Origin: a virus | Taxonomy: Duplodnaviria; Caudoviricetes | DNA: 46,092 bases | IMG/VR virus record: IMGVR_UViG_3300020045_010465 | Span: 1-46,092 of that record | Direction: 5' to 3' (one strand) | Shown here: piece by piece, positions 27,595-42,427 of the stretch | Layout of the letters: each line of letters begins with the position of its first letter | How positions within the stretch are numbered: the stretch's first letter is position 1 | Notes under the pieces: generated by a model | The model's input: only the letters and a program-made list of their open reading frames with translations | Told to the model about the DNA's origin: nothing | Databases searched by the model: none | Translations under genes and position numbers: made by a program

Positions 27595-27981
27595 TCATTT
27601 GGTATTGTTTAAGGTTAATTCTTCCCCAGTTAATGCAAAGTATAAGTTTTGTAGTTTATGGATATGTTTAAAATCTCCCTTTATAAAATTTTGCCCATTA
27701 CCAAAACATATTTCATATCCAGATAGATGTATAGATAATTCAGTCCCATGAATTATTATAAAATACCACTCATTAGAATGCTTAAGTTCATCAAAGCCAA
27801 ACTTTAATAACAAATTAGCATCTATTGTAATTGGTTTAATTGCGTTTAAATCATATCTACCACTGGGTAAGTGGTTTTCTTTCTTACAATCAACTAAATC
27901 GGTGCTTATTTGGTGTATAATCATATTGCCACCGTAATCATCCCATACATAATTCCCTATTCTTAATTCGTTTGCTTTCAT
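27595..27981 (-). CDS. hypothetical protein (ELRIGN...HxLQNLY family)
   Basis: paralogous to cassette ORF 33138-33608. Confidence 0.65.
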   Translation of the reverse strand: MKANELRIGNYVWDDYGGNMIIHQISTDLVDCKKENHLPSGRYDLNAIKPITIDANLLLKFGFDELKHSNEWYFIIIHGTELSIHLSGYEICFGNGQNFIKGDFKHIHKLQNLYFALTGEELTLNNTK

Positions 27982-30710: not shown

Positions 30711-31313
30711 TTATGATTTTAAATGATTCAAATAAGCTTTATAAGATTCGAAAATAGCCTGTATTTGTTTAAATTCATCAGTACCTCTTTTTGTTGAGTA
30801 TTCTTCTGTTGAGTTAAAAAAATACTGCCACTCTTCAATAGTTTTCTTTTTACACCCTATTTGTATTTTATCTCCTAGAATAGAATGACTCCATTTGCAA
30901 AATTGGGGCATACAAGCTAATTCTTTATTTTCTGCATTACTCAGGTCTGCGCCACTCAGGTCTGCATTACTCAGGTCTGCATTACTCAGGTTTGCGTATC
31001 TCAGGTTTGCGTATCTCAGGTCTGCATTACTCAGGTCTGCATTACTCAGGTTTGCGTATCTCAGGTTTGCGTATCTCAGGTTTGCGTATCTCAGGTCTGC
31101 ATTACTCAGGTCTGCATTACTCAGGTTTGCGTATCTCAGGTTTGCGTATCTCAGGTCTGCATTACTCAGGTCTGCATTACTCAGGTTTGCGTATCTCAGG
31201 TCTGCGTCGACTTCAATAGCCTCTTTTAATGTTGTTAAAATTGAATTATTATCCGATTCGTATTCAAATAATAAATTTCCAAAAATTGATTTAATCTGTA
31301 GCTTTGTTTTCAT
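30711..31313 (-). CDS. pentapeptide repeat protein
   Basis: A(D/N)L(S/R)x repeats; C-terminal IQIGC....EEW domain. Confidence 0.9.
   Translation of the reverse strand: MKTKLQIKSIFGNLLFEYESDNNSILTTLKEAIEVDADLRYANLSNADLSNADLRYANLRYANLSNADLSNADLRYANLRYANLRYANLSNADLSNADLRYANLRYANLSNADLSNADLSGADLSNAENKELACMPQFCKWSHSILGDKIQIGCKKKTIEEWQYFFNSTEEYSTKRGTDEFKQIQAIFESYKAYLNHLKS
30931..31200. repeat. 18 x 15-bp tandem repeat (two unit types) encoding the pentapeptides
   Basis: units tctgcattactcagg and tttgcgtatctcagg, plus one variant tctgcgccactcagg. Confidence 0.95.
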
Positions 31314-31367
31314 AATTGTTATTGTTGGTTAAATTCCAAATTTTTGATTAACTTATTTTATTTTTGA

Positions 31368-31586
31368 TTAAATTAATGCTTCGTAATGCTTCTTTTCTAT
31401 TTCTTGAAATTTCAATTGCTTGTCGAAAACTTCATTTACATATTTTTCAATGTCAGGATCGATTTTGTCCTTCATTATGGTAGTTCTTAGGTACCTTCCT
31501 GTTTTAGTTCCGTTAATCTTAAAGGCTATTTTATCGGTTATAGCCTCTTTGTGGTTCAGTTTTTCGTACTTTTCTTTGATTGTCAT
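31368..31586 (-). CDS. hypothetical protein
   Basis: 72 aa ORF. Confidence 0.5.
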   Translation of the reverse strand: MTIKEKYEKLNHKEAITDKIAFKINGTKTGRYLRTTIMKDKIDPDIEKYVNEVFDKQLKFQEIEKKHYEALI

Positions 31587-31589
31587 AGG

Positions 31590-31787
31590 TTAATAATTTT
31601 CTTCTGTTACTATTTCGGTTATTCTCTCAATTACGTTAGACTTAAGCATCCAGTAAATATCAACATCGTTAACTTTTATTAATTCAGTTGACCATCCGCC
31701 TGCATAATTAGTATCTGTTTCTGGTTTATCGTAATTTCCAAAAACTTCAAAATCCACCCCCTCGTAAGTTATTCTATGTGATTCCAT
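31590..31787 (-). CDS. hypothetical protein
   Basis: 65 aa ORF, first gene after the promoter. Confidence 0.55.
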   Translation of the reverse strand: MESHRITYEGVDFEVFGNYDKPETDTNYAGGWSTELIKVNDVDIYWMLKSNVIERITEIVTEENY

Positions 31788-31809
31788 ATTTATTGTTATT
31801 TTGTTTTAG

Positions 31810-31837
31810 CAAATGTATGTATTAATTATTACATACA
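31810..31837 (-). promoter_or_regulatory. Bacteroidota -7 promoter element with overlapping palindromic operator
   Basis: minus-strand TACATTTG (TAnnTTTG) at 31810-31817; TGTATGTA-N8-TACATACA inverted repeat at 31814-31837. Confidence 0.55.
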
Positions 31838-31859
31838 CAAAATAAAAAACGTTAAATTT

Positions 31860-32042
31860 TTAAAATGGACAATATTCTTTTTTAGGCTTGGGGAGTAAAT
31901 CGCTATACTCCCTTTTTATTTTCTCCTTTATTGCATCACGAATAAATTTACCGACGTCAATGTTATAAGACTTCATTTTTTGTAAAGTACTCAACTGAAT
32001 TTCTGAAATACGAATAACCTTTGTTTTAGTGTATTTTTTCAT
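31860..32042 (-). CDS. ribbon-helix-helix-like small DNA-binding protein
   Basis: KVIRIS strand, helix, then VGKFIRDAIKEKI helix; sits at the end of the left cassette array. Confidence 0.6.
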   Translation of the reverse strand: MKKYTKTKVIRISEIQLSTLQKMKSYNIDVGKFIRDAIKEKIKREYSDLLPKPKKEYCPF

Positions 32043-32084
32043 AATTGTAATACATTTGTAGCGTGTAGCCGATAGTTAGTGGCA
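32043..32084. other. terminal hairpin-less (attI-like) site of left array
   Basis: GTTAGTGGCA at 32075 matches TGCCACTAAC at 32674; no hairpin beyond it. Confidence 0.55.
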
Positions 32085-32089
32085 ACCGC

Positions 32090-32422
32090 CTAGTTTGTGG
32101 TTAACTTTTCTATTTCATTTTTTACTTCTTTGAAAAATGCTTTTTTATCGTGATTTAAGCATCTTGCATTATAAGAATCAGTCCCTTGTTTATCATAAAG
32201 TTCTTCTCCTAATTTTTTTAAAGTTGAAATAATTTCTTCCACCGCAATTAAAGCACATTCTTTAGCTACTTTCATTTTTGATAATTCATTAAAAGCTCTT
32301 TGAGGATATATAAATTTAGATATCAACTCTTCTGCTTTCTCTTTAATTATATTATCATATTGGTGTTGTGATGCTTCAATTTGTTCATCCATTTTATTAG
32401 CCATATAATTTCCTGTATCCAT
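32090..32422 (-). CDS. cassette L1 hypothetical protein
   Basis: KEKA.EL..KF...AKECALIAVEEII...EVK.EIEKL; paralog of 35995-36255. Confidence 0.65.
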   Translation of the reverse strand: MDTGNYMANKMDEQIEASQHQYDNIIKEKAEELISKFIYPQRAFNELSKMKVAKECALIAVEEIISTLKKLGEELYDKQGTDSYNARCLNHDKKAFFKEVKNEIEKLTTN

Positions 32423-32424
32423 AA

Positions 32425-32652
32425 TTATTTTTGATTTGTTGGTTTAGGAATATTTGTCCATTGCAAGTCGTTTTCATATTCAGGAGTAAATATTATATCT
32501 GAATCAGTAACTTGCCAGAACAAATTTTTAAAATCATAATATCCTATAAATAATTCTCCGTCAAAAAGAATCAATACATCAATGCTAAATGCTCCATTGC
32601 ATTCAATATCTTTAAGTGGATATTCTAATGCTGTTTTTAATTTTAAACTCAT
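32425..32652 (-). CDS. cassette L1 hypothetical protein (DUF551-like)
   Basis: ATG start MSLKLK at 32652; S.DVLI...IGYY...W...W..IP pattern. Confidence 0.55.
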   Translation of the reverse strand: MSLKLKTALEYPLKDIECNGAFSIDVLILFDGELFIGYYDFKNLFWQVTDSDIIFTPEYENDLQWTNIPKPTNQK

Positions 32653-32673
32653 AATTTCTTGTTTTACATGGTA

Positions 32674-32813
32674 TGCCACTAACAATCGCTATATTTCAGC
32701 GTTGTGATTTGGCTTAATTTAATGTTTTGTTTCTTTTTTTTTAATTTGTCCTTATCCGAAGAACGGTTTTGTGTCAGTCCACGCCGAAATTATAGCGATG
32801 GGCGTTATAAGCC
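32674..32813. repeat. attC-like hairpin site L1
   Basis: AAC-a-ATCGCTATATTTCAGCGT...ACGCCGAAATTATAGCGAT-gggc-GTT; 120-nt spacer. Confidence 0.85.
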
Positions 32814-33002
32814 ATTTACCAAGCCTGCGTAAACAGACCACCAATACACCTGAAAAAAGAAACTTGGATAAAAAAGCCACCATTGAGTAGGCGAAATCCA
32901 TTTGTAGCTTGGTAACGAAAGTGTGTTTTTACCAAACAAGGTTGCAATTTTTAGTAAATTAAGGATTACTATTCCTGACGTGAAAATGAATAAATACTGC
33001 AT
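32805..33002 (-). CDS. cassette L2 small membrane protein
   Basis: 2 hydrophobic segments; TAA stop is part of the TAAC core; arms GTTATAAGCC/GGCTTATAAC. Confidence 0.6.
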   Translation of the reverse strand: MQYLFIFTSGIVILNLLKIATLFGKNTLSLPSYKWISPTQWWLFYPSFFFQVYWWSVYAGLVNGL

Positions 33003-33044
33003 TGTTTTTTTAATTAAATTTTTAAGCCAAACACGAATAAAAAC

Positions 33045-33146
33045 GGCTTATAACAGTGGTTTGGCAAAATACCGCCACAAGCCTTTGTGCTAAATTTTAA
33101 CATTATGCAAGGCGGTACTTCGCCAAGCCAGATAACGTTAGTGTTC
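33045..33146. repeat. attC-like hairpin site L2
   Basis: TGGTTTGGCAAAATACCGCC...GGCGGTACTTCGCCAAGCCA; 82-nt spacer. Confidence 0.85.
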
Positions 33147-33608
33147 AGTTAAACACGTATTCGTTAAACTACAATTTTCAAAAAAATAATAGACGTTTTG
33201 TAATTCATGTACGTATTTTATCTCTTTAAATTCATTAACTTCAATAATGAATTCTTGAATATCTTCGTTAGGCATGTGAATTTTAAAATCGCCTTTTTTA
33301 AAAACTTTACTAGCTTGTTGTTCTTGAGGGTCACTGGTGAAATTGCTTGAAAATTTAAATTTATAAAACCATTCCTGCATTAATGGAATAGGCATAATTT
33401 CATTAATTGAATAAAAAATATCAATTCTATTATTCAACCCTATTTTGATATTATTTGAAAGGTCTGTTATTATAGAACTAATTGTTCCTACTTCTCTATG
33501 ATTTCCGTTGTAATGTATAAAATTTCCAATGCGTAAATTAGCAACCGAAACACTAACAACCGTTTGTAGTGATTGAGCATCGTATTGAATTTTGTTATCT
33601 GTTTTCAT
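33138..33608 (-). CDS. cassette L3 protein (LRIGN family), start codon inside hairpin loop
   Basis: ANLRIGN...HELQNVYY; the GTT core encodes Val18. Confidence 0.65.
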   Translation of the reverse strand: MKTDNKIQYDAQSLQTVVSVSVANLRIGNFIHYNGNHREVGTISSIITDLSNNIKIGLNNRIDIFYSINEIMPIPLMQEWFYKFKFSSNFTSDPQEQQASKVFKKGDFKIHMPNEDIQEFIIEVNEFKEIKYVHELQNVYYFFENCSLTNTCLTEH

Positions 33609-33682
33609 CTGTTTTTATTTGTGTTTAATTTATAAAATTAGCTTATTTTTTCAACCACTACAAGCGGCAAGCGTTAGCATCA
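33548..33682. repeat. attC-like hairpin site L3
   Basis: CCGTTTGTAGTGATTGA...TCAACCACTACAAGCGG; 115-nt spacer. Confidence 0.85.
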
Positions 33683-33691
33683 ATGCTACGT

Positions 33692-34039
33692 TTACTGGTA
33701 ATCGATGATTTCTGCTATTAACTCAGCTTTTGTGAAAATCACTTTTCTATCACTTGGATACCATAATTTTGGTAATAGCGAATTAATCTTTTTAAAATCA
33801 ATGTTTGCATCAAGAATTTTTGCTATTCTTTCTTGGTCTTCATCCATATTTTCAGAAAATCTATCTTCATCAAATACTCTTTCTGCAATAGTTTCTCCGT
33901 TTAGAAATCCAATATTTTCTAAATCACATTCGTAGGCTTCAACTGTAAAATCATCAGTTTGTTCTACTAAAAATTCATATTCAAGATGTTCTGCTATATC
34001 TTGAACTTCGCTAAAAAATCTGTCGTCAATTGCGTACAT
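33692..34039 (-). CDS. cassette L4 acidic hypothetical protein
   Basis: 115 aa, Asp/Glu-rich. Confidence 0.65.
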   Translation of the reverse strand: MYAIDDRFFSEVQDIAEHLEYEFLVEQTDDFTVEAYECDLENIGFLNGETIAERVFDEDRFSENMDEDQERIAKILDANIDFKKINSLLPKLWYPSDRKVIFTKAELIAEIIDYQ

Positions 34040-34064
34040 AAAAATCTGTTTTTAAGAACCGCAC

Positions 34065-34202
34065 TAATACTAACACAGGTTTGCAAAAATGGCAAGTTCA
34101 GGTTTAATTTATAGTTTGTTTTGTGTCTGTAATGTTTTGGCAAAATCGAAAATTAAGGCTTGCTTTTTTGCCACTTCTGCAAGCCACGAACCGTTAAGCA
34201 CA
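34065..34202. repeat. attC-like hairpin site L4
   Basis: GGTTTGCAAAAATGGCAA...TTGCCACTTCTGCAAGCC; 118-nt spacer. Confidence 0.85.
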
Positions 34203-34205
34203 AGT

Positions 34206-34655
34206 TTAAGAGCGACCGTCAAAAACGACAATCATACTATCTTTCGTGCCACTTTGTTCTTTTCCTTTTGCGTTTAATGGTATGTAGAAATTTCCATTTT
34301 TATCTAACTTACCAAATTTTATTCTGCCTTTTAAAAATTCAATTTCAGTTGCGTTTGGTTTGATCCATTCATGAAATAATTTTGTACTTGTAGATACTGG
34401 AATAAGGAAAACACAAACTTTTCCTTTTTTCATTTCTTCAACTCCTTTTTTTACAAATTCCTCTTTTAGTTTTTGGCTATAAGGTGGATTTACAAAATTT
34501 GAGTTTCCCCATTCAATTTTTAATCCATCGTTTAAAATTTCACCTTCATTATAAGGGCAAGGATCAAAATCGAAATTAAAACGTTTATTCAATTCCTCGT
34601 ATAATTTTGGAGGAGTTGCATAATTATCATCGTTATTTATGTGAATTTTTTTCAT
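34206..34655 (-). CDS. cassette L5 phage DNA N6-adenine methyltransferase (Dam-like, short type)
   Basis: ATP, F.FDFDPCP, FVNPPYS, LIP..T.T..FH and GRIKF motifs. Confidence 0.85.
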   Translation of the reverse strand: MKKIHINNDDNYATPPKLYEELNKRFNFDFDPCPYNEGEILNDGLKIEWGNSNFVNPPYSQKLKEEFVKKGVEEMKKGKVCVFLIPVSTSTKLFHEWIKPNATEIEFLKGRIKFGKLDKNGNFYIPLNAKGKEQSGTKDSMIVVFDGRS

Positions 34656-34677
34656 ACTAAATTTTAAATTAAAAACC

Positions 34678-34764
34678 TGTGCTTAACAAGTGTTTTGCTC
34701 AATTGTGCCGAAATTAGTTTGCGGTTAGGCACAACTGAAGCAAAGCACTCGAACGTTATCAGGA
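34678..34764. repeat. attC-like hairpin site L5
   Basis: AGTGTTTTGCTCAATTGTGCC...GGCACAACTGAAGCAAAGCACT; 67-nt spacer. Confidence 0.85.
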
Positions 34765-34778
34765 ATACTAAGATTCCG

Positions 34779-35015
34779 TTATTTATGAAATTTAGATTTT
34801 GGCTTGTCGAATATTTGCTCCTGAATAGGTTCGGGTTCATTAAAGCATTTTAATTTTAACGCTTCATTTTTGAAGTAATCGTTTTCTCGTTTTTCTTTCA
34901 TTTCTTCTGGAGTTACAATAATAATTCCTCTTTCTTTTTCAAGAACGCTATCAATTGCACTTTGTAAACAAGTTCTTCCGTGATCTACGTGACCAATTAT
35001 CATTATTTTTTTCAT
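34779..35015 (-). CDS. cassette L6 small protein with EF-Tu-like G1 motif
   Basis: IIGHVDHGRT at N-terminus; arms GTTATCAGGA/TCCTGATAAC. Confidence 0.6.
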   Translation of the reverse strand: MKKIMIIGHVDHGRTCLQSAIDSVLEKERGIIIVTPEEMKEKRENDYFKNEALKLKCFNEPEPIQEQIFDKPKSKFHK

Positions 35016-35044
35016 AACATATTTGTTTTTTAATTAATTCGTAC

Positions 35045-35182
35045 TCCTGATAACAGCGTGTTGTTTTCAGGCTTGGATTATTTTTTGTTTTTTTAATTGG
35101 GGCGAATTCGCCATAATTAGAATCCTTGTTGTTATAAGTGATAATTCACGCCCGAAAAGCAACACGCGAACCGTTATGCATC
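35045..35182. repeat. attC-like hairpin site L6
   Basis: GCGTGTTGTTTTCAGGC...GCCCGAAAAGCAACACGC; 118-nt spacer. Confidence 0.85.
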
Positions 35183-35350
35183 AGCTTGGTTGGAACGGCT
35201 AAATATTTCCTTAATACCATTTTGAACTTTACAAAATGTGCATTTTACTACCTGAATACTTCTACTGTATTTTGATTGTTTAGTAATAACAGTCACGGTA
35301 TTTTTAGAACCGCAATAACTACAATCTACTTGTTGTTTAATTTCTGCCAT
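35174..35350 (-). CDS. cassette L7 58-aa zinc-ribbon protein (below ORF-track cutoff)
   Basis: MAEIKQQVDCSYCGSK...KCTFCKVQNG...NQADA*, TAA stop in TAAC core. Confidence 0.65.
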   Translation of the reverse strand: MAEIKQQVDCSYCGSKNTVTVITKQSKYSRSIQVVKCTFCKVQNGIKEIFSRSNQADA

Positions 35351-35371
35351 AATTTGTGATTTAAAAAGCCG

Positions 35372-35510
35372 AACGGCTAACAGCGTGTTGTTTTCAGGCT
35401 TGGATTAGTTGTTTTTTGAATAGTCAAGGATTTCTTGACAGTTGGTTTTGTACTCGTTGTTATCGGTGATTATTAACGCCCGAAAAGCAACACGCAAAAC
35501 GTTACCCATG
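35372..35510. repeat. attC-like hairpin site L7
   Basis: same stem as L6; 119-nt spacer; abuts the terS stop codon. Confidence 0.85.
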
Positions 35511-35842
35511 ACTAGCTTCCAAGAACTGCTTAAAAATATCTTGCTGACCGGAATCAGTTTCTTTTTGTTCAACTAATTTGCCTCGGTCCTTGAAACTAAA
35601 TCCGAAATGTTTAGAAAGCTCATTGATTTCCTTTATCATTTTTTCTCGAATAGTAACGTAACCGGATACATTTGTGGCACCGCCTTTGAAAGTTTGTATC
35701 AAACCACCATGAAATCCTTTATTTCTAATTTCATTTTCGGATTTAGTTTCAAGGACCGAGGCAAATTAGTTGAACAAAAAGAAACTGATTCCAGTCAGCA
35801 AGATATTTTTAAGCAGTTCTTAGAAGCTAGTCATGGGTAACG
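35500..35842. repeat. 108-bp inverted repeat (35500-35607 / 35735-35842), 2 mismatches, 127-nt spacer
   Basis: direct comparison; both copies encode FGFSFKDRGKL...FLEASHG*. Confidence 0.95.
35502..35740 (-). pseudogene. 5'-truncated terminase small subunit, P27-family-like (C-terminal ~78 aa)
   Basis: ENEIRNKGFHGGLIQTFKGGATNVSGY...LSKHFGFSFKDRGKL; the terS-like frame is interrupted at the fold-back junction; context upstream of HK97-type terL. Confidence 0.6.
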
Positions 35843-35972
35843 GTTCGCTAGTATGATTTCGGCTTGATAAAATGCAAGACCTTATTTCGGATTAAAAAAA
35901 GTAAAAACAAATACAAAAATTAATAACCTAAAGACCGATACAAAAGCTGAAATATACTAGCTGTTAGGGAAT
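35832..35972. repeat. attC-like hairpin site R1
   Basis: GCTAGTATGATTTCGGCTT...AAGCTGAAATATACTAGC; 121-nt spacer. Confidence 0.85.
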
Positions 35973-35994
35973 CGGCTTTATAACACCAAATATC

Positions 35995-36255
35995 ATGGAC
36001 GTAAGGAAAAAAGCAGTTGATTTAATAAAGAAATTTGACGTAAAGTATTACTACAAATTAACTAAAGGACAATTACCAGTATCAATGCATAATTCAGTTA
36101 TCAAAGAATGTATTTTAAATTCTATTAACGAAATAATAACTGAATTATCAAAAGTGCATTATAGAACTGATGTGACTGATATTTTAGAAAATTGGCAAGA
36201 AGTAAAAGTAATAATTGAGCAGGATTTTGACCAGTTATACCAAGCTGTTCCCTAA
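35995..36255 (+). CDS. cassette R1 hypothetical protein
   Basis: paralog of 32090-32422; TAA stop in TAAC core. Confidence 0.65.
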   Translation: MDVRKKAVDLIKKFDVKYYYKLTKGQLPVSMHNSVIKECILNSINEIITELSKVHYRTDVTDILENWQEVKVIIEQDFDQLYQAVP

Positions 36256-36384
36256 CGGCGGATGCTACACGATGGCTGGGACAAGCACACATCCAGACTT
36301 CGGATAATGACAGATTATAAAAGTGCAAAACCAACTTTAAATTTAACCCGAAACCCAGCTATTGTGTAGCATATGTTACCAGTA
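36247..36384. repeat. attC-like hairpin site R2
   Basis: ATGCTACACGATGGCTGGG...CCCAGCTATTGTGTAGCAT; 118-nt spacer. Confidence 0.85.
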
Positions 36385-36403
36385 GTGTTTTATACTAAAT
36401 ATT

Positions 36404-36592
36404 ATGAAAGAAGTAAGAGCAAATTGTTATGTAGAAGTTTTATGTACTTGCCCTAATTGTGGCTATGGATTAGACGTTTTGGATGAAGTAAGAGAGGTTA
36501 TGGATGACGACCACAGAGCAAGCGGAATAGATGTAGAAGTTACTTGTGAAGATTGCAAAGAAACGTTTTTAGTTACCGATGTCGATTTTTAA
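36404..36592 (+). CDS. cassette R2 zinc-ribbon protein
   Basis: CPNC...CEDC. Confidence 0.7.
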   Translation: MKEVRANCYVEVLCTCPNCGYGLDVLDEVREVMDDDHRASGIDVEVTCEDCKETFLVTDVDF

Positions 36593-36595
36593 CAT

Positions 36596-36734
36596 TACTG
36601 GTAACGGTCTTTTGCTAGTGGAAGTGGCTTGAATTAAGCACCGATGCCAGCAAGAAAAGACCAGTACTTAAGTAATCCTTGATAGTTCAAACACAAAACC
36701 ATCTAGCCATTTTTACTAGCAAATGTTAGTAGCT
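36596..36734. repeat. attC-like hairpin site R3
   Basis: TTTGCTAGTGGAAGTGGCT...AGCCATTTTTACTAGCAAA; 119-nt spacer. Confidence 0.85.
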
Positions 36735-36779
36735 GGACGGATTAATTAAACAAAAATTAACTTATAAAAATTAAATATT

Positions 36780-37031
36780 ATGTTTTGGAATAGAAAAGAA
36801 AAAGTAGTTATAGGGAGTCTTGGTCCGTTATTGATTCCTCCAATTCCCGCAAAAAGAGAATTTGAAACAATGTTGGAGATATTGAAAGATGCTGAAAAGT
36901 ATGATAATGGAAATGATATTGAAGTTAGAAATGCTTTACTTACAACTTTATGTGAACACATAGAAGTTTTTAAAGCCAAAAAACAAGAAGCACACAGGGA
37001 TGGAAGTATTTCTCTAAAAGCAGATTCGTAG
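36780..37031 (+). CDS. cassette R3 hypothetical protein
   Basis: fills the cassette between arms GTTAGTAGC/GCTACTAAC. Confidence 0.6.
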   Translation: MFWNRKEKVVIGSLGPLLIPPIPAKREFETMLEILKDAEKYDNGNDIEVRNALLTTLCEHIEVFKAKKQEAHRDGSISLKADS

Positions 37032-37034
37032 TCT

Positions 37035-37176
37035 TGCTACTAACGTTCCCTTGCTAAACGAGGTTAGGGATAAAATAAAAAACAGATTTTCGATTAATAA
37101 CTAATACCAACAAAAATGAAACAGACCACAGATAATGCCCAAATGCCCGAATCTTGTTTAGCAAGTGTTGGCAGTA
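37035..37176. repeat. attC-like hairpin site R4
   Basis: CTTGCTAAACGAGGTT...AATCTTGTTTAGCAAG; 122-nt spacer. Confidence 0.85.
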
Positions 37177-37388
37177 GTTATTCTCTTTATCAGGGTACTG
37201 AATGGAACGATGAAAAATTTGATTTATTAATAGTAGTTAATTTTGAATTAAAAAAGATAAACAGGATTGACCTTGAAAATAAAGTAACTAAAATAATTGA
37301 TATTCCTGAAACAGGTATTCCAGTTCATTTTAAAAAAATAAGTAAATCAAAATTTAACAAATTGGTTGAGAAGTACCTATTTGTATAA
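37116..37388 (+). CDS. cassette R4 hypothetical protein, start codon inside hairpin loop
   Basis: GTT core at 37167 encodes Val18. Confidence 0.6.
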   Translation: MKQTTDNAQMPESCLASVGSSYSLYQGTEWNDEKFDLLIVVNFELKKINRIDLENKVTKIIDIPETGIPVHFKKISKSKFNKLVEKYLFV

Positions 37389-37389
37389 T

Positions 37390-37530
37390 TACTGCCAACG
37401 CTCCCGTGCTTGTGTACAGTAGCGTACAAGTACAAGACAGTCTTAAACTTCGGCAAACAGTTTAAAAAATTGCCAAAACTTAAAATTAATCACCAAGCAA
37501 AGCTATTGACACAAACACGTGTTATAAGAA
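37390..37530. repeat. attC-like hairpin site R5
   Basis: CGTGCTTGTGTACAGTAGC...GCTATTGACACAAACACG; 121-nt spacer. Confidence 0.85.
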
Positions 37531-37553
37531 GTAGCGGGTTTTAAAACAAAAAT

Positions 37554-37763
37554 ATGATAGAAATTGTAAACGTAAAAGACAGATTACCAAATGTAGAATG
37601 TGGTAGTTATTTAGTTTATGCTCCTGAAAGTTTCCCTAAAAATAGTAGGTGGTTAGTTGCGGAGTATTATGATGATGTTAAAGGTTTTTATAGCGAAAGT
37701 TCTGAAAACTTTTTAGAAGATGTTACGCATTGGTGCGAATTGCCTAAAGAACCGCTAACGTAG
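37554..37763 (+). CDS. cassette R5 DUF551-like protein
   Basis: VKDRLP...YLV...VTHWCELP.EP. Confidence 0.7.
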   Translation: MIEIVNVKDRLPNVECGSYLVYAPESFPKNSRWLVAEYYDDVKGFYSESSENFLEDVTHWCELPKEPLT

Positions 37764-37767
37764 CTAT

Positions 37768-37909
37768 TTCTTATAACGTTTTGCGGCTATACGAGGTTGT
37801 TGCCGAATTAAAAACAGACCTCACAAATACAAACTAATACTTAAAATTATGACTGATATTTCAAAAAATACCGAATTGCAACAATCTTGTATAACCGCTG
37901 TTATAGGCA
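37768..37909. repeat. attC-like hairpin site R6
   Basis: GCGGCTATACGAGGTTGTTGC...GCAACAATCTTGTATAACCGC; 122-nt spacer. Confidence 0.85.
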
Positions 37910-38085
37910 GTCCTAATGAGTTAGAGCCTGTTTTAGCATTTATAAATCACATTGGTGAATTAGGGTTATCTGAATGGTACGAGGTGGTTTATTATGCCGA
38001 TAAATGGTATTCTTATGCAGGAAGTAAAACATTTGAAGATGGCGAAAAAGTCATTAGATGGAAGTACGCTAAGGATTGCCTATAA
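37849..38085 (+). CDS. cassette R6 hypothetical protein, start codon inside hairpin loop
   Basis: GTT core at 37900 encodes Val18; TAA stop in TAAC core. Confidence 0.65.
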   Translation: MTDISKNTELQQSCITAVIGSPNELEPVLAFINHIGELGLSEWYEVVYYADKWYSYAGSKTFEDGEKVIRWKYAKDCL

Positions 38086-38138
38086 CGTTCCCATTTATTC
38101 AACCCACAAAACCACCAACAAAACTAACACTTAAGCTT
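38072..38138. other. attI-like terminal site between last cassette and integrase
   Basis: AGGATTGCCTATAAC arm followed by non-palindromic sequence up to the integrase ATG. Confidence 0.6.
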
Positions 38139-38939
38139 ATGAATTCCGCAAAGTACATCCAAGACTATGAGAGAGATTTGAGATTCATTCACTTCTCTAT
38201 TGAAACGATAAAAAACTACAGTAGTCAAATAAAGTTATTCCTGGCATATTTTAAAGAAAAAGACAGTCCTAAACATATTTCTGCAGATGAAATCAAGGAT
38301 TATCTGTTGAATGCTAAAGAAGTCAATTCGCAAAATGCAATGCATTCTGCAATTAAAAAGTTTTACATTTTGACGATCAAGCAAAACAGGAAATTCGAAT
38401 ACATAACGTATGCCAAAAAAGAAAAGAAAATTCCACTTGTAATTGATATGGATGAGTTGGTTTTGATGATTGATAAAATCGAAAACAAAAAACACAAAGC
38501 GATAATTGCTTTAACATCTTCGGTTGGATTGCGAGTTTCTGAAGTTTTGAATTTAAAGTTGGAGCATATTAGCACACCGCTGATGCAAATTAGAATCATT
38601 GGTGCCAAAGGCAAAAAAGACCGTATAGTGCCACTAACTGAAAAGGTCAGAGAAATTATTCGCATTTACTATGTGGAATATCTGCCAAAAGAATATTTAT
38701 TTAATGGTCAAGATAAGCCACAATATTCACGTGGAAGCTGTAATCAGGTGGTTAAAAAATGCCTTGGAAAAAAATACCACATGCACACGTTACGGCATAG
38801 TGCAGCAACCGGTTTATTTGAAAAAGGAACAGATCTTAAATTAATAGGTGATTTATTAGGGCAAACATCATTAAAAACGACTTCAATTTATGCGCATACG
38901 TCGAGCAAAAAATTAAAAAGTTTGCCTTTTGGTATTTAA
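38139..38939 (+). CDS. tyrosine recombinase (integron-integrase-like N-terminal SAM domain, no I2 insertion)
   Basis: S..TIKNY...IK.FL.YF N-terminus; GLRVSE, KG.KDR, HTLRHS, LLGQ, TT.IYAH; ATG at 38139 (MNSAKY) preferred over TTG at 38076. Confidence 0.9.
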   Translation: MNSAKYIQDYERDLRFIHFSIETIKNYSSQIKLFLAYFKEKDSPKHISADEIKDYLLNAKEVNSQNAMHSAIKKFYILTIKQNRKFEYITYAKKEKKIPLVIDMDELVLMIDKIENKKHKAIIALTSSVGLRVSEVLNLKLEHISTPLMQIRIIGAKGKKDRIVPLTEKVREIIRIYYVEYLPKEYLFNGQDKPQYSRGSCNQVVKKCLGKKYHMHTLRHSAATGLFEKGTDLKLIGDLLGQTSLKTTSIYAHTSSKKLKSLPFGI

Positions 38940-38999
38940 ATTACAAAATGAGGTTTCCCGTAAAGAAATAAAAAAACAAAGAAATAGGTTTGGGCGCTT

Positions 39000-39221
39000 T
39001 CAAGGCAATAATTCTGAAACATCAATATTTAAAGCTTTACAAATTTTAAAAAGGGATCCAATAGTAGTATTGATTTCGCCACGTTCAATTCTTCCTATTT
39101 GGTTTATTGGAATGTTGGCATCATGAGAAAGTGTGGCTTGCGAAAGATGCTTAGACAATCGTTTTTCTCTAAGTTTTTGCCCAACATTTTTGATAAATAT
39201 TTTTTCGCCTTTTTCTAACAC
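39000..39221 (-). CDS. XRE-family HTH regulator
   Basis: G.KLREKR....LSQ..L.....I....IGRIERGE.N.T...L..I..AL. Confidence 0.85.
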   Translation of the reverse strand: MLEKGEKIFIKNVGQKLREKRLSKHLSQATLSHDANIPINQIGRIERGEINTTIGSLFKICKALNIDVSELLP

Positions 39222-39235
39222 GCATCAAAAGTGCA

Positions 39236-39271
39236 GTTATATTTTAAAATAACATAACACAAATATGTGTT
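39236..39271. promoter_or_regulatory. two adjacent palindromes in the divergent XRE/terL gap (operator candidates)
   Basis: GTTAT-N8-ATAAC (39236-39253) and AACACA-N4-TGTGTT (39256-39271). Confidence 0.4.
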
Positions 39272-39311
39272 TTTTGTAATCGTTTTACCGCATTAAAAAC
39301 AAAATCAATCA

Positions 39312-41042
39312 ATGAAACCAACACAAAAACAGCTTGAATCCGTTCCTTTTCAGTATGCAAATGACGTGCGTACTGGTAAAATTATAGTTGGAAAACGCAT
39401 CAAGCAAGCCGTGAAGCGTTTTTACTCCTGGGTAGAAAATGCTGAAATAGATGGTTTTATTTTGGACCATGAAAAAGGAATGCGCATCCTGAGCTTCTTC
39501 CCTACTTTTTTAAACCACACCATAGGTAAACTAGCGGGAAAACCTTTCGTTTTGGCACCATTCCAGCAATTCACCATGTATAATATTTTTGGTTGGATAA
39601 ATGCAAAAACAGGATTCCGCAGAATCAACACTGTTTACGATAAAAGAGCTAAAAAAAACGGGAAAACCGCTGAAATGGCGGGACTTGCATTATACGCCCT
39701 TTCTTTCGATTTAGAAATGGAAGCGCAAGTGTATGTTGGGGCCACAAAGGAAGAGCAAGCGCGTATTTGCTGGAAACAGGCGAAAATGTACATTGAAAGT
39801 CCGGTGGCGAATCCTGCCTTGCGTAAAATGGGGTTTTACTGCCTTCAAAAGATAATCGGATTCAAAAATACAGGATCTACCATGATGCCATTGGGTGGTG
39901 ATTCAAAAACACAGGATGGTATCAACTGCCATGTGGGAATAATAGACGAATACCACGCCCATAAAGATGATTCGGTAAAAGAAAACCTTGAATCATCTAC
40001 CGTACAAAGAGCGCAGCCGTTAATTTACCAAATCACAACCGCAGGTGCAAATGTGCAATCTGCCTGCAAAAACTATGAAGATTCAGTTATTGAAGTTTTG
40101 GAAGGTCGAAATATAGATCACTCGCTTTGGATAATGATTCACGACATAGACCAGGAAGATTTAGAAACGCCTGAAAGTTGGGAAAACAAGGATTTATGGA
40201 TAAAAGCAAATCCGCTTTTGGGAAATGGTTTGGCTTTAGAAGGAATCGAAAAGGAATTTGTAAAAGCATTAAATCAGCCTTCTAAAATTCGAAATTTCAA
40301 GACTAAAAACTTGAATATGTGGGTAGATCAGCAGTTCGACTGGATTCAAACAGAGATTTGGAATAAAAACAAAGTCGATGCAATCCCGATGGAAAAATTC
40401 AAAACATTAGGTTCTTATGCGGGTTTAGATTTATCAAAAACACGAGATTTAACAGCTTTTGGAGCGTTGTCAGAGCCGGATGAAAATGATGATCGATTTG
40501 TTAAAATTTGGTTTTTTATGCCAAAAGATACAATTATAGTTCGATCTAAAGAGGATAGAATACCATATCAATATTGGGCTGATAAAGGGTATATAATCGC
40601 TACACCTGGAAATGTAGTTGATTATAATATTGTAGAAGATACGATAAGAAAAGAATGGCCGTCGCTAAACATTATTAGAATGGGTTATGACACATATAAT
40701 GCGACACAAATCACTCAAAACCTTCATGAAGATGGCTATGTAGTATCAGAATTTAGTCAAGCAATAGGAACGATTTCAACGCCTACAAAAGAGTTTGAAA
40801 GATTAGTACTTAAAGGCAATATAAAACACGATGGAAATCCGGTGTTGTCATGGATGCTAGCTTCATGTGATATTTATACTGATGCTAATTTAAATATCAA
40901 AGTTCACAAAGGTCGTTCCTCAATCAATGGTCGCCGTGTCGATGGTATCATTGCTCTAATAATAGCTTTAGGCGAATCTATGTCAACGCCTGAATCAAAC
41001 GAAAGTATCTACAACCGGGAAGGTACAGAATTCACTTGCTAA
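39312..41042 (+). CDS. terL: terminase large subunit, Terminase_1/HK97-like (phage B)
   Basis: AKKNGKT Walker A, IIDEYH Walker B, ITTAG, GLDLS...DLTA, RVDGIIA. Confidence 0.95.
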   Translation: MKPTQKQLESVPFQYANDVRTGKIIVGKRIKQAVKRFYSWVENAEIDGFILDHEKGMRILSFFPTFLNHTIGKLAGKPFVLAPFQQFTMYNIFGWINAKTGFRRINTVYDKRAKKNGKTAEMAGLALYALSFDLEMEAQVYVGATKEEQARICWKQAKMYIESPVANPALRKMGFYCLQKIIGFKNTGSTMMPLGGDSKTQDGINCHVGIIDEYHAHKDDSVKENLESSTVQRAQPLIYQITTAGANVQSACKNYEDSVIEVLEGRNIDHSLWIMIHDIDQEDLETPESWENKDLWIKANPLLGNGLALEGIEKEFVKALNQPSKIRNFKTKNLNMWVDQQFDWIQTEIWNKNKVDAIPMEKFKTLGSYAGLDLSKTRDLTAFGALSEPDENDDRFVKIWFFMPKDTIIVRSKEDRIPYQYWADKGYIIATPGNVVDYNIVEDTIRKEWPSLNIIRMGYDTYNATQITQNLHEDGYVVSEFSQAIGTISTPTKEFERLVLKGNIKHDGNPVLSWMLASCDIYTDANLNIKVHKGRSSINGRRVDGIIALIIALGESMSTPESNESIYNREGTEFTC

Positions 41043-41061
41043 CTAAAATTGATTAATAATT

Positions 41062-41322
41062 ATGAACGCAGTCGAAGAAAATGCCCTTAGAATTTACATT
41101 GCTAAAATTGAAAAACAAAATGAGCAAATGCGACAGCTCTCTTCTCGAAAAGGTTTTTATGCCGCCTATTTTATAGAACTGAAAACCGCAAAATCCAACA
41201 AAGAAGCTTTTGACACCGTCAATGAAATCTATCATGAGCTATTTGGGAATTATCGCTACTCAGATTGGAATTCCTTCAAAGTCATGACAAATTATTACAA
41301 CCATCAAAAACAATCAAAATGA
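41062..41322 (+). CDS. hypothetical protein
   Basis: 86 aa; FG..RYS...SF motif. Confidence 0.6.
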   Translation: MNAVEENALRIYIAKIEKQNEQMRQLSSRKGFYAAYFIELKTAKSNKEAFDTVNEIYHELFGNYRYSDWNSFKVMTNYYNHQKQSK

Positions 41323-41492
41323 AAATAGCAATTATTATTCTCTTTACATTCTTACTCGCATTTGCCACCAGTGCGTTATTCGAATTTAATTTTATAACTA
41401 CAAATCCTGTGCGTTATGCGCTCGTGGTTTTTTTAATCAGCATCGAATTACTAACTGGATTTTTTTATATAAAATCTGAAATAAAAAATTAA
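41319..41492 (+). CDS. small 2-TM membrane protein
   Basis: MKIAIIILFTFLLAF start overlapping the previous stop (ATGA). Confidence 0.55.
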   Translation: MKIAIIILFTFLLAFATSALFEFNFITTNPVRYALVVFLISIELLTGFFYIKSEIKN

Positions 41493-41493
41493 A

Positions 41494-41646
41494 ATGTCAG
41501 AAAATCTTAAAGTAGAAAATATTGCAAAAGCAATAAGGCTGTTGCCAAAACCTAAAACTTACCAAGCTACAACTGTCACAGTAGCAGTAGGAAAACTAAA
41601 ATACACCTTCGAAAAAATAAAAGACGAATGGTATTATAAGTTCTAG
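41494..41646 (+). CDS. 50-aa hypothetical protein
   Basis: MSENLKVENIAKAIRLLPKP...EWYYKF*, starts 1 nt after the previous stop. Confidence 0.45.
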   Translation: MSENLKVENIAKAIRLLPKPKTYQATTVTVAVGKLKYTFEKIKDEWYYKF

Positions 41647-41669
41647 TCATTGCGAGGTACGAAGCAATC
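41646..41669. repeat. REP-like small palindromic element
   Basis: GTCATTGCGAGGTACGAAGCAATC resembles the gtcattgcgag...gaagcaatc interspersed repeat family (recalled, not searched). Confidence 0.5.
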
Positions 41670-41699
41670 GCATAATGTTAAACTAATAAAAATATAAAA

Positions 41700-41891
41700 A
41701 TGCAGAAATCAGAAATTATAAAAAAACTTCTTAGTATAAAACAGGAAGTAATAAAATTAGGTATTATAGCCGTGTCGGATATACAAGTTCCTGTAGACAG
41801 TCAAATTATTGAATTGCAGTTGTTTTCGAATCTTGAAGATGCATTTACTGAAGCTATTGAATCTGTTAATAATAATCATAAATTTAAATAA
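41700..41891 (+). CDS. hypothetical protein
   Basis: 63 aa ORF. Confidence 0.5.
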   Translation: MQKSEIIKKLLSIKQEVIKLGIIAVSDIQVPVDSQIIELQLFSNLEDAFTEAIESVNNNHKFK

Positions 41892-41893
41892 TA

Positions 41894-42130
41894 GTGAAAA
41901 TATTCCTTCAATCATTTTTCCAAATTGGATTAGTAGCCATAAACACGATGTTAATCTCGAAAGGGATTTACATCGGTGTTTTTATAGTGTCATTTTTAAT
42001 TAGCTTGCTTTGGGCGTTCAATGTTTCTAAAGTGGCAATATCAACAATAAAACAAAAATTAATCTACGCATTTGGCGCTGGATGTGGAGCGGTGATTGGA
42101 TTAGTTTTAATATCTTTAATCTTTAAATAA
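41894..42130 (+). CDS. small 3-TM membrane protein
   Basis: hydrophobic; W.FNV.K...YA.GA..G motif. Confidence 0.6.
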   Translation: MKIFLQSFFQIGLVAINTMLISKGIYIGVFIVSFLISLLWAFNVSKVAISTIKQKLIYAFGAGCGAVIGLVLISLIFK

Positions 42131-42133
42131 AAA

Positions 42134-42427
42134 ATGATGAAACCAAAATTAATAAATATAGACCTTTCTGAAATTACAAAAAAACTTGAATTGATTCAAG
42201 GCGAAATGTCAGAAGATATTATTTCAAAATTAAAAGAAGCGTCTATTTTTTTGCCTGATTTTGATACTTTTGAACGTGAGATGGTTCAGGTTCCTATTAT
42301 AGAACAGCCAGAAGTTTTGGTTAACAATTCTGTTTATCCTTCATTAAATACTTTTTTTACTAAAGTAATTACTTTTAGAAAAAACCATAAAAGTAAAACG
42401 TGGGTATTCTATTCAAAAAACTTTTAA
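42134..42427 (+). CDS. hypothetical protein
   Basis: 97 aa ORF. Confidence 0.5.
   Translation: MMKPKLINIDLSEITKKLELIQGEMSEDIISKLKEASIFLPDFDTFEREMVQVPIIEQPEVLVNNSVYPSLNTFFTKVITFRKNHKSKTWVFYSKNF

Follow-up and report, generated by a model that had tools for sequence, protein, structure and literature searches.

IMG/VR record IMGVR_UViG_3300020045_010465 (Duplodnaviria; Caudoviricetes), rated 100% complete, was analysed over its entire 46,092 bp, hereafter the window. Between positions 32043 and 38939 it carries two arrays of small genes separated by sequences that can fold back on themselves, which raises the question whether these genes are cassettes and, if so, which enzyme moves them and on what kind of DNA. 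A first-pass annotation had proposed a phage-borne, integron-like cassette system with non-canonical attC-type hairpins. Here we argue that the arrays consist of small genes between fold-back sites and that the adjacent recombinase would excise and insert the units by cutting the folded strand at AAC, a reading to which we assign, on comparative sequence analysis, a probability of about 80%. The locus is a real integron-like cassette platform, but it fails the IntI, R-box and orientation tests of integrons.

Thirteen units are found, seven on the minus strand (32075-35503, L7 to L1) and six on the plus strand (35839-38086, R1 to R6), at the coordinates first proposed. Read in the coding direction, each consists of AAC, 5 nt (4 in L5), inner stem, long A-rich loop, inner stem, T, GTT-arm, gene and arm-AAC. 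Twelve of the thirteen have self-complementary GTT.../...AAC arms, as had been claimed, and the three arm pairs quoted at the time are exact; the exception is the Zn-ribbon unit L1 (body 35173-35381, 3/7). Over arm positions 4-10 the two ends of a unit match each other at 6.3/7 on average and the ends of other units at 2.9/7, with a single one of 156 non-self pairs reaching at least 6/7. Within 31.9-38.2 kb, 12 of 2235 GTT/AAC pairs match at 10/10, whereas 200 dinucleotide shuffles gave 0.3 on average and never more than 2; eight of the twelve are cassette arms, three belong to an inverted terS duplication, and the last (32729-32863) was rejected as a T/A-rich chance match. A typical arm has 10 Watson-Crick pairs, one G.T and then 3-4 pairs. 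The spacers measure 73-128 nt from AAC to GTT and fold; the '5 vs 1' internal loop drawn for the rebuilt hairpin, in contrast, resolves in most cases into a G.T pair and a bulge of 4 nt. Rfam gave no match at E<=5 over positions 31000-40000, and promoter and terminator scans remained at background (38 sigma-70 promoters found, 32 expected).

The right array adjoins a genuine tyrosine recombinase, as the first-pass annotation had stated. This 266-aa Xer-like protein (38139-38939, plus strand) matches Pfam PF00589 (Phage_integrase, E 3e-27) and PF13495 (SAM_4). Catalytic residues R132, K157, H216, R219 and Y251 are present, and Q242 (codon 38862-38864) replaces the conserved second His, which is found at this position in the other 34 aligned proteins and in 75 of the 79 viral loci, three of the remainder being unparsed and one other locus having Gln as well; sequencing runs X1 and X2 likewise read a His codon there. 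The IntI model TIGR02249 scores 115.9 with a cut-off of 265, and the Xer families also stay below their cut-offs (XerA 155 < 220, XerC 138 < 335, XerD 137 < 330). Best match in both sequence and fold is XerA, followed by IntI4 (structural model with pLDDT 87.7). The alignment with IntI4 (2a3v) splits into query residues 16-170 against 15-173 and 210-256 against 261-307, and the model shows only helices H168-181 and H198-209 at the place of I2. Judged from alignment and predicted structure, the IntI-specific I2 insert is absent, because 39 residues stand where IntI4 has 87, and since the recombinase lacks this insert the system is not an integron proper. Single-strand cassette recombination has been credited to the gain of the I2 helix (PMC7790495; PMC4792948), and the insertion is described as not fully conserved in an integron-like subgroup (PMC8138268).

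A putative attI-like docking site (38084-38138, plus strand) lies directly before the recombinase, with a variable arm preceding and a conserved leader following an AAC that is 52 nt before the ATG. Its conservation was assessed in 79 viral loci, namely the best 80 of 567 matches minus three incomplete loci plus L002 and L004, with some duplicates (three-digit L numbers denote related loci). The recombinase start is preceded by an AAC at a distance of 50-53 nt in 65 of the 67 loci with an ATG and sufficient flank, and in 52 of these 67 the arm ahead of that AAC pairs at no less than 9/10 with an upstream GTT arm, compared with 11% for swapped arms; as the AAC was picked for best pairing within an 18-nt window, the former figure is slightly biased. 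Sites concentrate upstream of the recombinase on its own strand, where 134 were counted against 14 on the other strand (193 kb), with 20 and 23 downstream (257 kb). At least two sites occur in that quadrant in 36 of 56 viral loci and in the remaining three in 2/56, 2/75 and 4/75. In the recombinase phylogeny the short phage-type enzymes, two contigs of metagenome-assembled genomes included, form one clade (24 of 57 rows, support 100/100). The tree has no IntI/XerCD outgroup and is therefore silent on ancestry; the row of phage Ingeline was dropped, and that of phage Leef was ignored given its very long branch, probably a result of mis-extraction.

Cassette content turns over within a constant frame. 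The window and loci L002, L003, L004, L009 and L010 share the frame from terS to the recombinase and carry 6, 2, 4, 1, 3 and 3 cassettes, respectively, whose content is wholly unrelated among the six, with stretches of hairpin alone in common. All five relatives have AAC as their right border; on the left, four of them have the terS stop, TAA-C, as border, and L002 has TAA-T and an ordinary gene first. In 3 of 12 metagenome terS loci terL begins 5-6 nt after the terS stop, which represents the empty state. The body of cassette L7 occurs near-identically in runs X1, X2 and X3, each match ending at the AAC at 32075, and its homologues on viral contigs are distant (32-46%). The check proposed originally, comparison of cassette order in related phages, thus reveals gain and loss at AAC boundaries, with 1-4 different cassettes per relative. 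The depth of the L7 contig is higher in X2, an observation not used as evidence.

Structure statistics were derived from 209 parsed cassettes, a few of them alternative parses, 142 of which (114 phage, 28 host) pass a stricter filter. Of the 162 perfect arms, 137 have a G.T pair at position 11; among 123 ungapped inner stems position 14 is G.T in 103 and position 5 a C.A mismatch in 59, and some inner stems have single bulges. On the AAC-first strand these G.T and C.A marks are the same in phage and host among the 142 strictly filtered cassettes. The gene, in contrast, lies on the AAC strand in 113/114 phage cassettes and on the opposite strand in 23/28 host cassettes, these 23 matching the classical integron layout. 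The rebuilt circle junction is more stable on the site strand in 12 of the 13 window units. Because the wobble marks follow the site strand while gene orientation flips between phage and host, we infer that the hairpin structure belongs to one DNA strand of the site and not to mRNA. The strand marks point to a single-stranded DNA substrate with mirror-oriented phage genes.

These observations bear on the rival explanation that survives best, although we hold it to be improbable: that the hairpins are RNA-level expression signals such as terminators, processing sites or elements for ribosome loading, that phage homologous recombination at shared boundaries swaps the genes, and that the recombinase is a bystander. 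As many as 52 of the 114 phage ORFs start inside the upstream hairpin, as expected of an expression signal, but the wobbles track the site strand rather than the coding strand and RNA energies favour the coding strand in only 2/12 hairpins. Families of hairpins and arms do supply 20-150 nt of homology, the left phage encodes a recombination-type exonuclease, and identical bodies with different hairpins, described below, would fit; the borders nevertheless fall on a core of 3-4 nt, the arms are unit-specific and pair across the whole gene, and AAC stands at a fixed distance from the recombinase start.

What is exchanged follows from near-identical hairpins found in different contexts. In 40 such pairs, counted after dropping one syntenic pair, the downstream arm is shared in 13 and the upstream arm in none (3% expected at random). 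Since sharing is confined to the downstream arm, the main exchanged unit in phages would be a hairpin with its following gene, a mirror of classical cassettes. The arm-bounded units of the first-pass annotation hence stand as structures, but what moves is mainly hairpin plus downstream gene. Loci L134 and L042 have the body and upstream hairpin in common and the flanks not. Hairpins with at least 80% identity to one of another phage are seen for 41/114 phage cassettes; the corresponding host to phage comparison yields 0/28.

Arms, moreover, change in concert and faster than genes. DUF551 cassettes L266 and L273 have a 90% identical core and share 1/6 and 2/6 arm positions, each cassette remaining self-complementary, and one X9 contig has the arms of L7 around a different 247 nt. 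Such concerted change bears on cassette genesis. The DUF551 cassettes as a set (L264-L275, window 37521-37777) show at least five self-complementary arm pairs on 74-96% identical cores, with clear arms missing in 4 or 5 of the 12 loci.

Taken together, recombination by the proposed route would proceed as follows. The two arms of a unit would pair on single-stranded DNA, and after circularization arms and inner stem would form one hairpin consisting of 10 bp, G.T, a 4-nt bulge and the inner stem, whose position 14 is a G.T pair. A single-strand exchange at AA|C, catalysed by the enzyme, would then join two folded sites or, alternatively, a folded site and the double-stranded attI-like leader, and replication would complete the process as it does in integrons. 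The entry point for new cassettes would be beside the recombinase. As phage genes, in mirror image to host and classical cassettes, are carried by the strand that is cut, upstream phage promoters would drive transcription of the inserted cassettes. If the other strand were cut now and then instead, a hairpin would become coupled to another gene.

The second rival, which we consider more improbable still, holds that these are ordinary attC cassettes (clusters known as CALINs) handled by a host IntI and that the adjacent gene is the phage's own integration enzyme. AAC/GTT cores and self-matching cassette ends are as in integrons, and Bacteroidota are listed among integron-bearing phyla (PMC8618304); Bacteroidetes go unmentioned in the main text of PMC4889954. 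CALINs occur in phages, and Qi et al. (PMC9892861) report that five of six tested phage sites worked with IntI1. The one that was not recombined by IntI1, P12002L_attC1 of Polaribacter phage P12002L, has the layout of the present family: located on the coding strand, it is followed by a methyltransferase, and the arms of that body match. Further, the R boxes GTTRRRY / RYYYAAC are satisfied in only 1/13 units, the genes lie on the cut strand, and the recombinase clade is tied to the array end. The portion of PMC9892861 available to us treats the phage sites as ordinary attC without integrase, with directions called 'divergent', and names no dedicated recombinase, attI-like site or family there. 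The expectation that standard models might miss the system needs tempering: Rfam is silent, yet HattCI caught this site, apparently of the same family. The short P12002L attC1 site was missed by our own detector and was located by motif.

A conventional double-strand, two-cut Xer/Cre-type action on short AAC/GTT cores, with folding incidental or serving site selection only, would suit the XerA, XerC and XerD matches in HMM, sequence and fold, the missing I2 insert and the exchanges seen also at the GTT side, but is just as improbable as the foregoing, given that pairing and not sequence is conserved at the sites, that strand-specific G.T pairs are meaningless in duplex DNA, and that 0 of 114 phage units are inverted, though inverted arms would invite inversion.

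Several observations nevertheless weigh against cassette exchange by this recombinase on folded DNA. Downstream arms differ in 27 of the 40 hairpin pairs, and the same body is found with different upstream hairpins in L040/L051, in L267/L270 and in L7 compared with X1, X2 and X9. Two processes would account equally well for these cases, namely other-strand cutting inside an array and homologous recombination between shared arms. A crossover at the right-strand inner box was dropped as an explanation of the same-body pairs, as identity stops at the T before GTT. The Gln242 substitution may have weakened or impaired the window's recombinase copy; the platform with its turnover at AAC and its recombinase link is upheld. 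An enzyme without I2 would need another means of avoiding an abortive second cut. The site detector is home-made and gives 9 background matches over 38 kb of the window; the locus set also contains some duplicates. Contigs of the runs, the sole data compared, contain no circle junction. At least two sites occur in only 8 of 45 chromosomal loci, many homologues having no array, and none of five related left-type records (0/3 of the near-complete ones) encodes the recombinase, so left-type arrays are without a recombinase in cis.

The first-pass annotation spoke of a phage platform; phage arrays exist, but the system is not restricted to them, as the same sites occur in Bacteroidota chromosome arrays beside longer homologues. 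After exclusion of two truncated loci, the host set comprised 78 of 80 genome loci, in most of which the enzyme is longer and shares 33-44% identity with the query. Here 42 sites lie downstream on the opposite strand, against 5, 11 and 9 in the other quadrants. In five host arrays viewed over their whole length, the last AAC is close to the stop codon of the recombinase, with an extra gene in between in one of them. Recombinase homologues are also found on plasmids (matches H41-H46 and H64-H65), namely on Bacteroidota plasmids and, with 44% identity over 76% of the length, on two Acinetobacter baumannii plasmids. Cellulophaga phage Ingeline, with a 37% identical recombinase, has no convincing site. 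Polaribacter phage Leef_1 (L254, 5455-6995), a cultured phage, carries one or more clear cassettes together with a 33% identical recombinase that an AAC precedes by ~55 nt; it is a possible experimental model. For the window itself, recombinase homologues bearing names are mostly from Bacteroidota, Flavobacterium among these, and Flavobacterium-type bacteria are its likely hosts.

The two-sided layout requires a separate explanation. Two phage halves, apparently of different phages, stand back to back in the window, and terminase, portal and protease genes are each present twice. The minus-strand half (1 to ~32 kb) has early, replication, terS/terL, portal, protease and lysis genes, and the plus-strand half (39.3-46 kb) a second terL, portal, protease and capsid. 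Both arrays are real, as annotated at first, but the duplicate gene sets and the nature of the centre (35501-35841, phrog_83) had been missed: two terS 3' ends lie in the centre head to head, with an inverted join at ~35735-35740. The two copies differ at 2/106 nt, there are a few bases of microhomology at the join, and each terS stop codon (TAA-C) forms the first AAC of one array. This segment was rejected as a cassette, both arms being the terS end, with no matching upstream arm in L004, L009 and L010, where terS is intact (155-156 aa). Contigs of runs X1, X2 and X4 match up to 35740 and end there, and the loose end in X1 runs past this point into sequence resembling the missing part of terS; the comparison used contigs, the best run covering 0.17 of the region. 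Whole-genome amplification typically produces such fold-back junctions. A chimera of different genomes joined at the broken terS is the probable origin of the two-sided layout, with a genuine one-off recombination event the less probable alternative. The terS end that opens the left array is of the right-hand phage type, but the array finishes in the early region of the left phage, and a second join must therefore lie inside it.

The left array, moreover, ends at a second type of leader. This leader (32043-32077, minus strand) starts at AAC and would be a second attI-like end, with no recombinase beside it. It precedes a 60-aa gene that closes the array (31860-32042, minus strand), which belongs to phrog_25647, a family without assigned function, matches Pfam DUF6290 only at E 0.007, below the cut-off, and is presumably ribbon-helix-helix-like. 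Homologues of this gene are preceded by a variable arm, TAAC and a similar leader in 8/8 loci (L092, L103, L108, L115, L119, L120, L123 and L142). A short palindrome-like motif just before the start codon could be an operator.

The cargo includes an adenine methyltransferase and a DUF551 protein, the majority being without assigned function, and three ORFs (in L5, R4 and R6) start in the loop of the preceding hairpin. On the minus strand, L7 (32075-32806) has its hairpin at 32681-32806 and two ORFs (75 and 110 aa) in its body at 32075-32683, and L6 (32804-33139; hairpin 33052-33139, 94% like one in L022) an uncertain 65-aa ORF in its body at 32804-33054. L5 (33137-33675) combines the 4-nt hairpin variant (33555-33675) with a body at 33137-33557 and a 156-aa ORF of phrog_10066; this family is matched by the L5 cargo (33138-33608) and by a gene outside the arrays (27595-27981). 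L4 (33673-34195; hairpin 34072-34195, body 33673-34074) encodes 115 aa and has extra G.T wobbles in its arms. L3 (34193-34757) has a short hairpin (34685-34757), and its body (34193-34687) encodes an N6-adenine DNA methyltransferase (34206-34655; PF05869, E 3.5e-18), 76-84% identical copies of which are found in L113, L120 and L122. These matches are confined to the gene itself, and the L120 copy has no detected hairpin site next to it. L2 (34755-35175; hairpin 35052-35175, body 34755-35054) encodes 78 aa, and L1 (35173-35503), with mismatched arms, couples a near copy of the L2 hairpin (35379-35503) to a body encoding a 58-aa Zn-ribbon-like ORF.

On the plus strand, R1 (35839-36256; hairpin 35839-35965, body 35963-36256) encodes 86 aa, R2 (36254-36605; hairpin 36254-36377, body 36375-36605) a Cys-rich ORF of 62 aa, its hairpin and arm 90% like those in L092, and R3 (36603-37044; hairpin 36603-36727, body 36725-37044) 83 aa. 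R4 (37042-37399; hairpin 37042-37169, body 37167-37399) has a 90-aa ORF. R5 (37397-37777; hairpin 37397-37523, body 37521-37777) encodes the DUF551 protein (PF04448, E 1e-6), homologous cassettes of which carry other arm pairs, and R6 (37775-38086; hairpin 37775-37902, body 37900-38086) a 78-aa ORF of phrog_23756. Beyond the recombinase and before terL lies an XRE-type HTH gene (39000-39221, minus strand), which only some of the relatives have. The small genes that follow one another from terL to portal (41053-42427) likewise vary among relatives, and no hairpin sites were detected there. Just outside the left array a pentapeptide-repeat protein (30711-31313) derives from a 15-nt tandem repeat.

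The cassette system is apparently not in print: searches of full-text literature, with subscription papers mostly outside it, yielded no description, only partial detections. We regard it as an even bet that phages and hosts together represent a second integron-like system in Bacteroidota, with an I2-less recombinase acting on folded single-stranded DNA, strand marks consisting of G.T and the 4-nt bulge, a phage clade with mirror-oriented cassettes, hairpin-arm 'vehicles' that are reloaded with genes, and possibly a stage preceding the acquisition of I2. A viral, Xer-like origin of integrons has been proposed, of which we know no example so far. If our reading is true, this widespread recombinase of phages, which has no I2 but its own attI-like site and hairpin cassettes, would be either that example or an independent invention. 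It would also explain small-gene mosaicism and methyltransferase turnover in Bacteroidota phages, and may explain the homology-independent gene uptake reported in a Bacteroidota host. It would offer a compact 266-aa recombinase with structure-defined sites, and the concerted arm changes would provide a handle on how cassettes form, opening cassette genesis to direct test.

Comparison with known systems places the arrays nearest to, yet apart from, classical integrons. Folded sites and an enzyme without I2 also meet in CTXphi, where XerCD recombine a folded single-stranded site in the manner of an integrative mobile element exploiting Xer (IMEX; PMC4792948); there, however, host XerCD integrate a whole phage at dif, whereas here a phage-encoded enzyme stands beside a multi-gene array with variable sites. 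Phage P12002L (Qi et al. 2023) has the same arm layout and methyltransferase cargo, and one of its arm pairs is that of R4. In Riemerella anatipestifer, another member of the Bacteroidota, aph(3')-IVb is reported to be taken up independently of homology, moving with a short leader and a downstream attC-like hairpin of 140 bp, similar in length to ours, which is what arrays of the host type would lead one to expect; the part of the report available to us names no recombinase (PMC13148043). That arrays start at the plain TAAC of the terS stop is as insertion at a secondary site would have it, and off-target insertion of cassettes at attG sites has been shown, in the portion available of Loot et al. 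(10.1101/2022.09.11.507474), for IntI only. Class 1 and sedentary Vibrio integrons likewise have arrays of single-gene units with self-matching ends and an AAC/GTT core, a hairpin conserved in structure and an attI-like site beside a simple tyrosine recombinase, and the integron rule of cleavage in the AAC triplet of the folded strand (PMC5027507) would have its counterpart here in a single-strand exchange at AAC. The arrays differ from them in lacking the I2 insert, in arms of 10 bp, G.T and 3-4 bp instead of a 7-bp RYYYAAC box, and in a 4-nt bulge where classical sites have a roughly symmetric central spacer. Finally, in phages the hairpin comes before its gene and in many cases includes the start codon, whereas in classical integrons attC follows the gene and its bottom strand is recombined.

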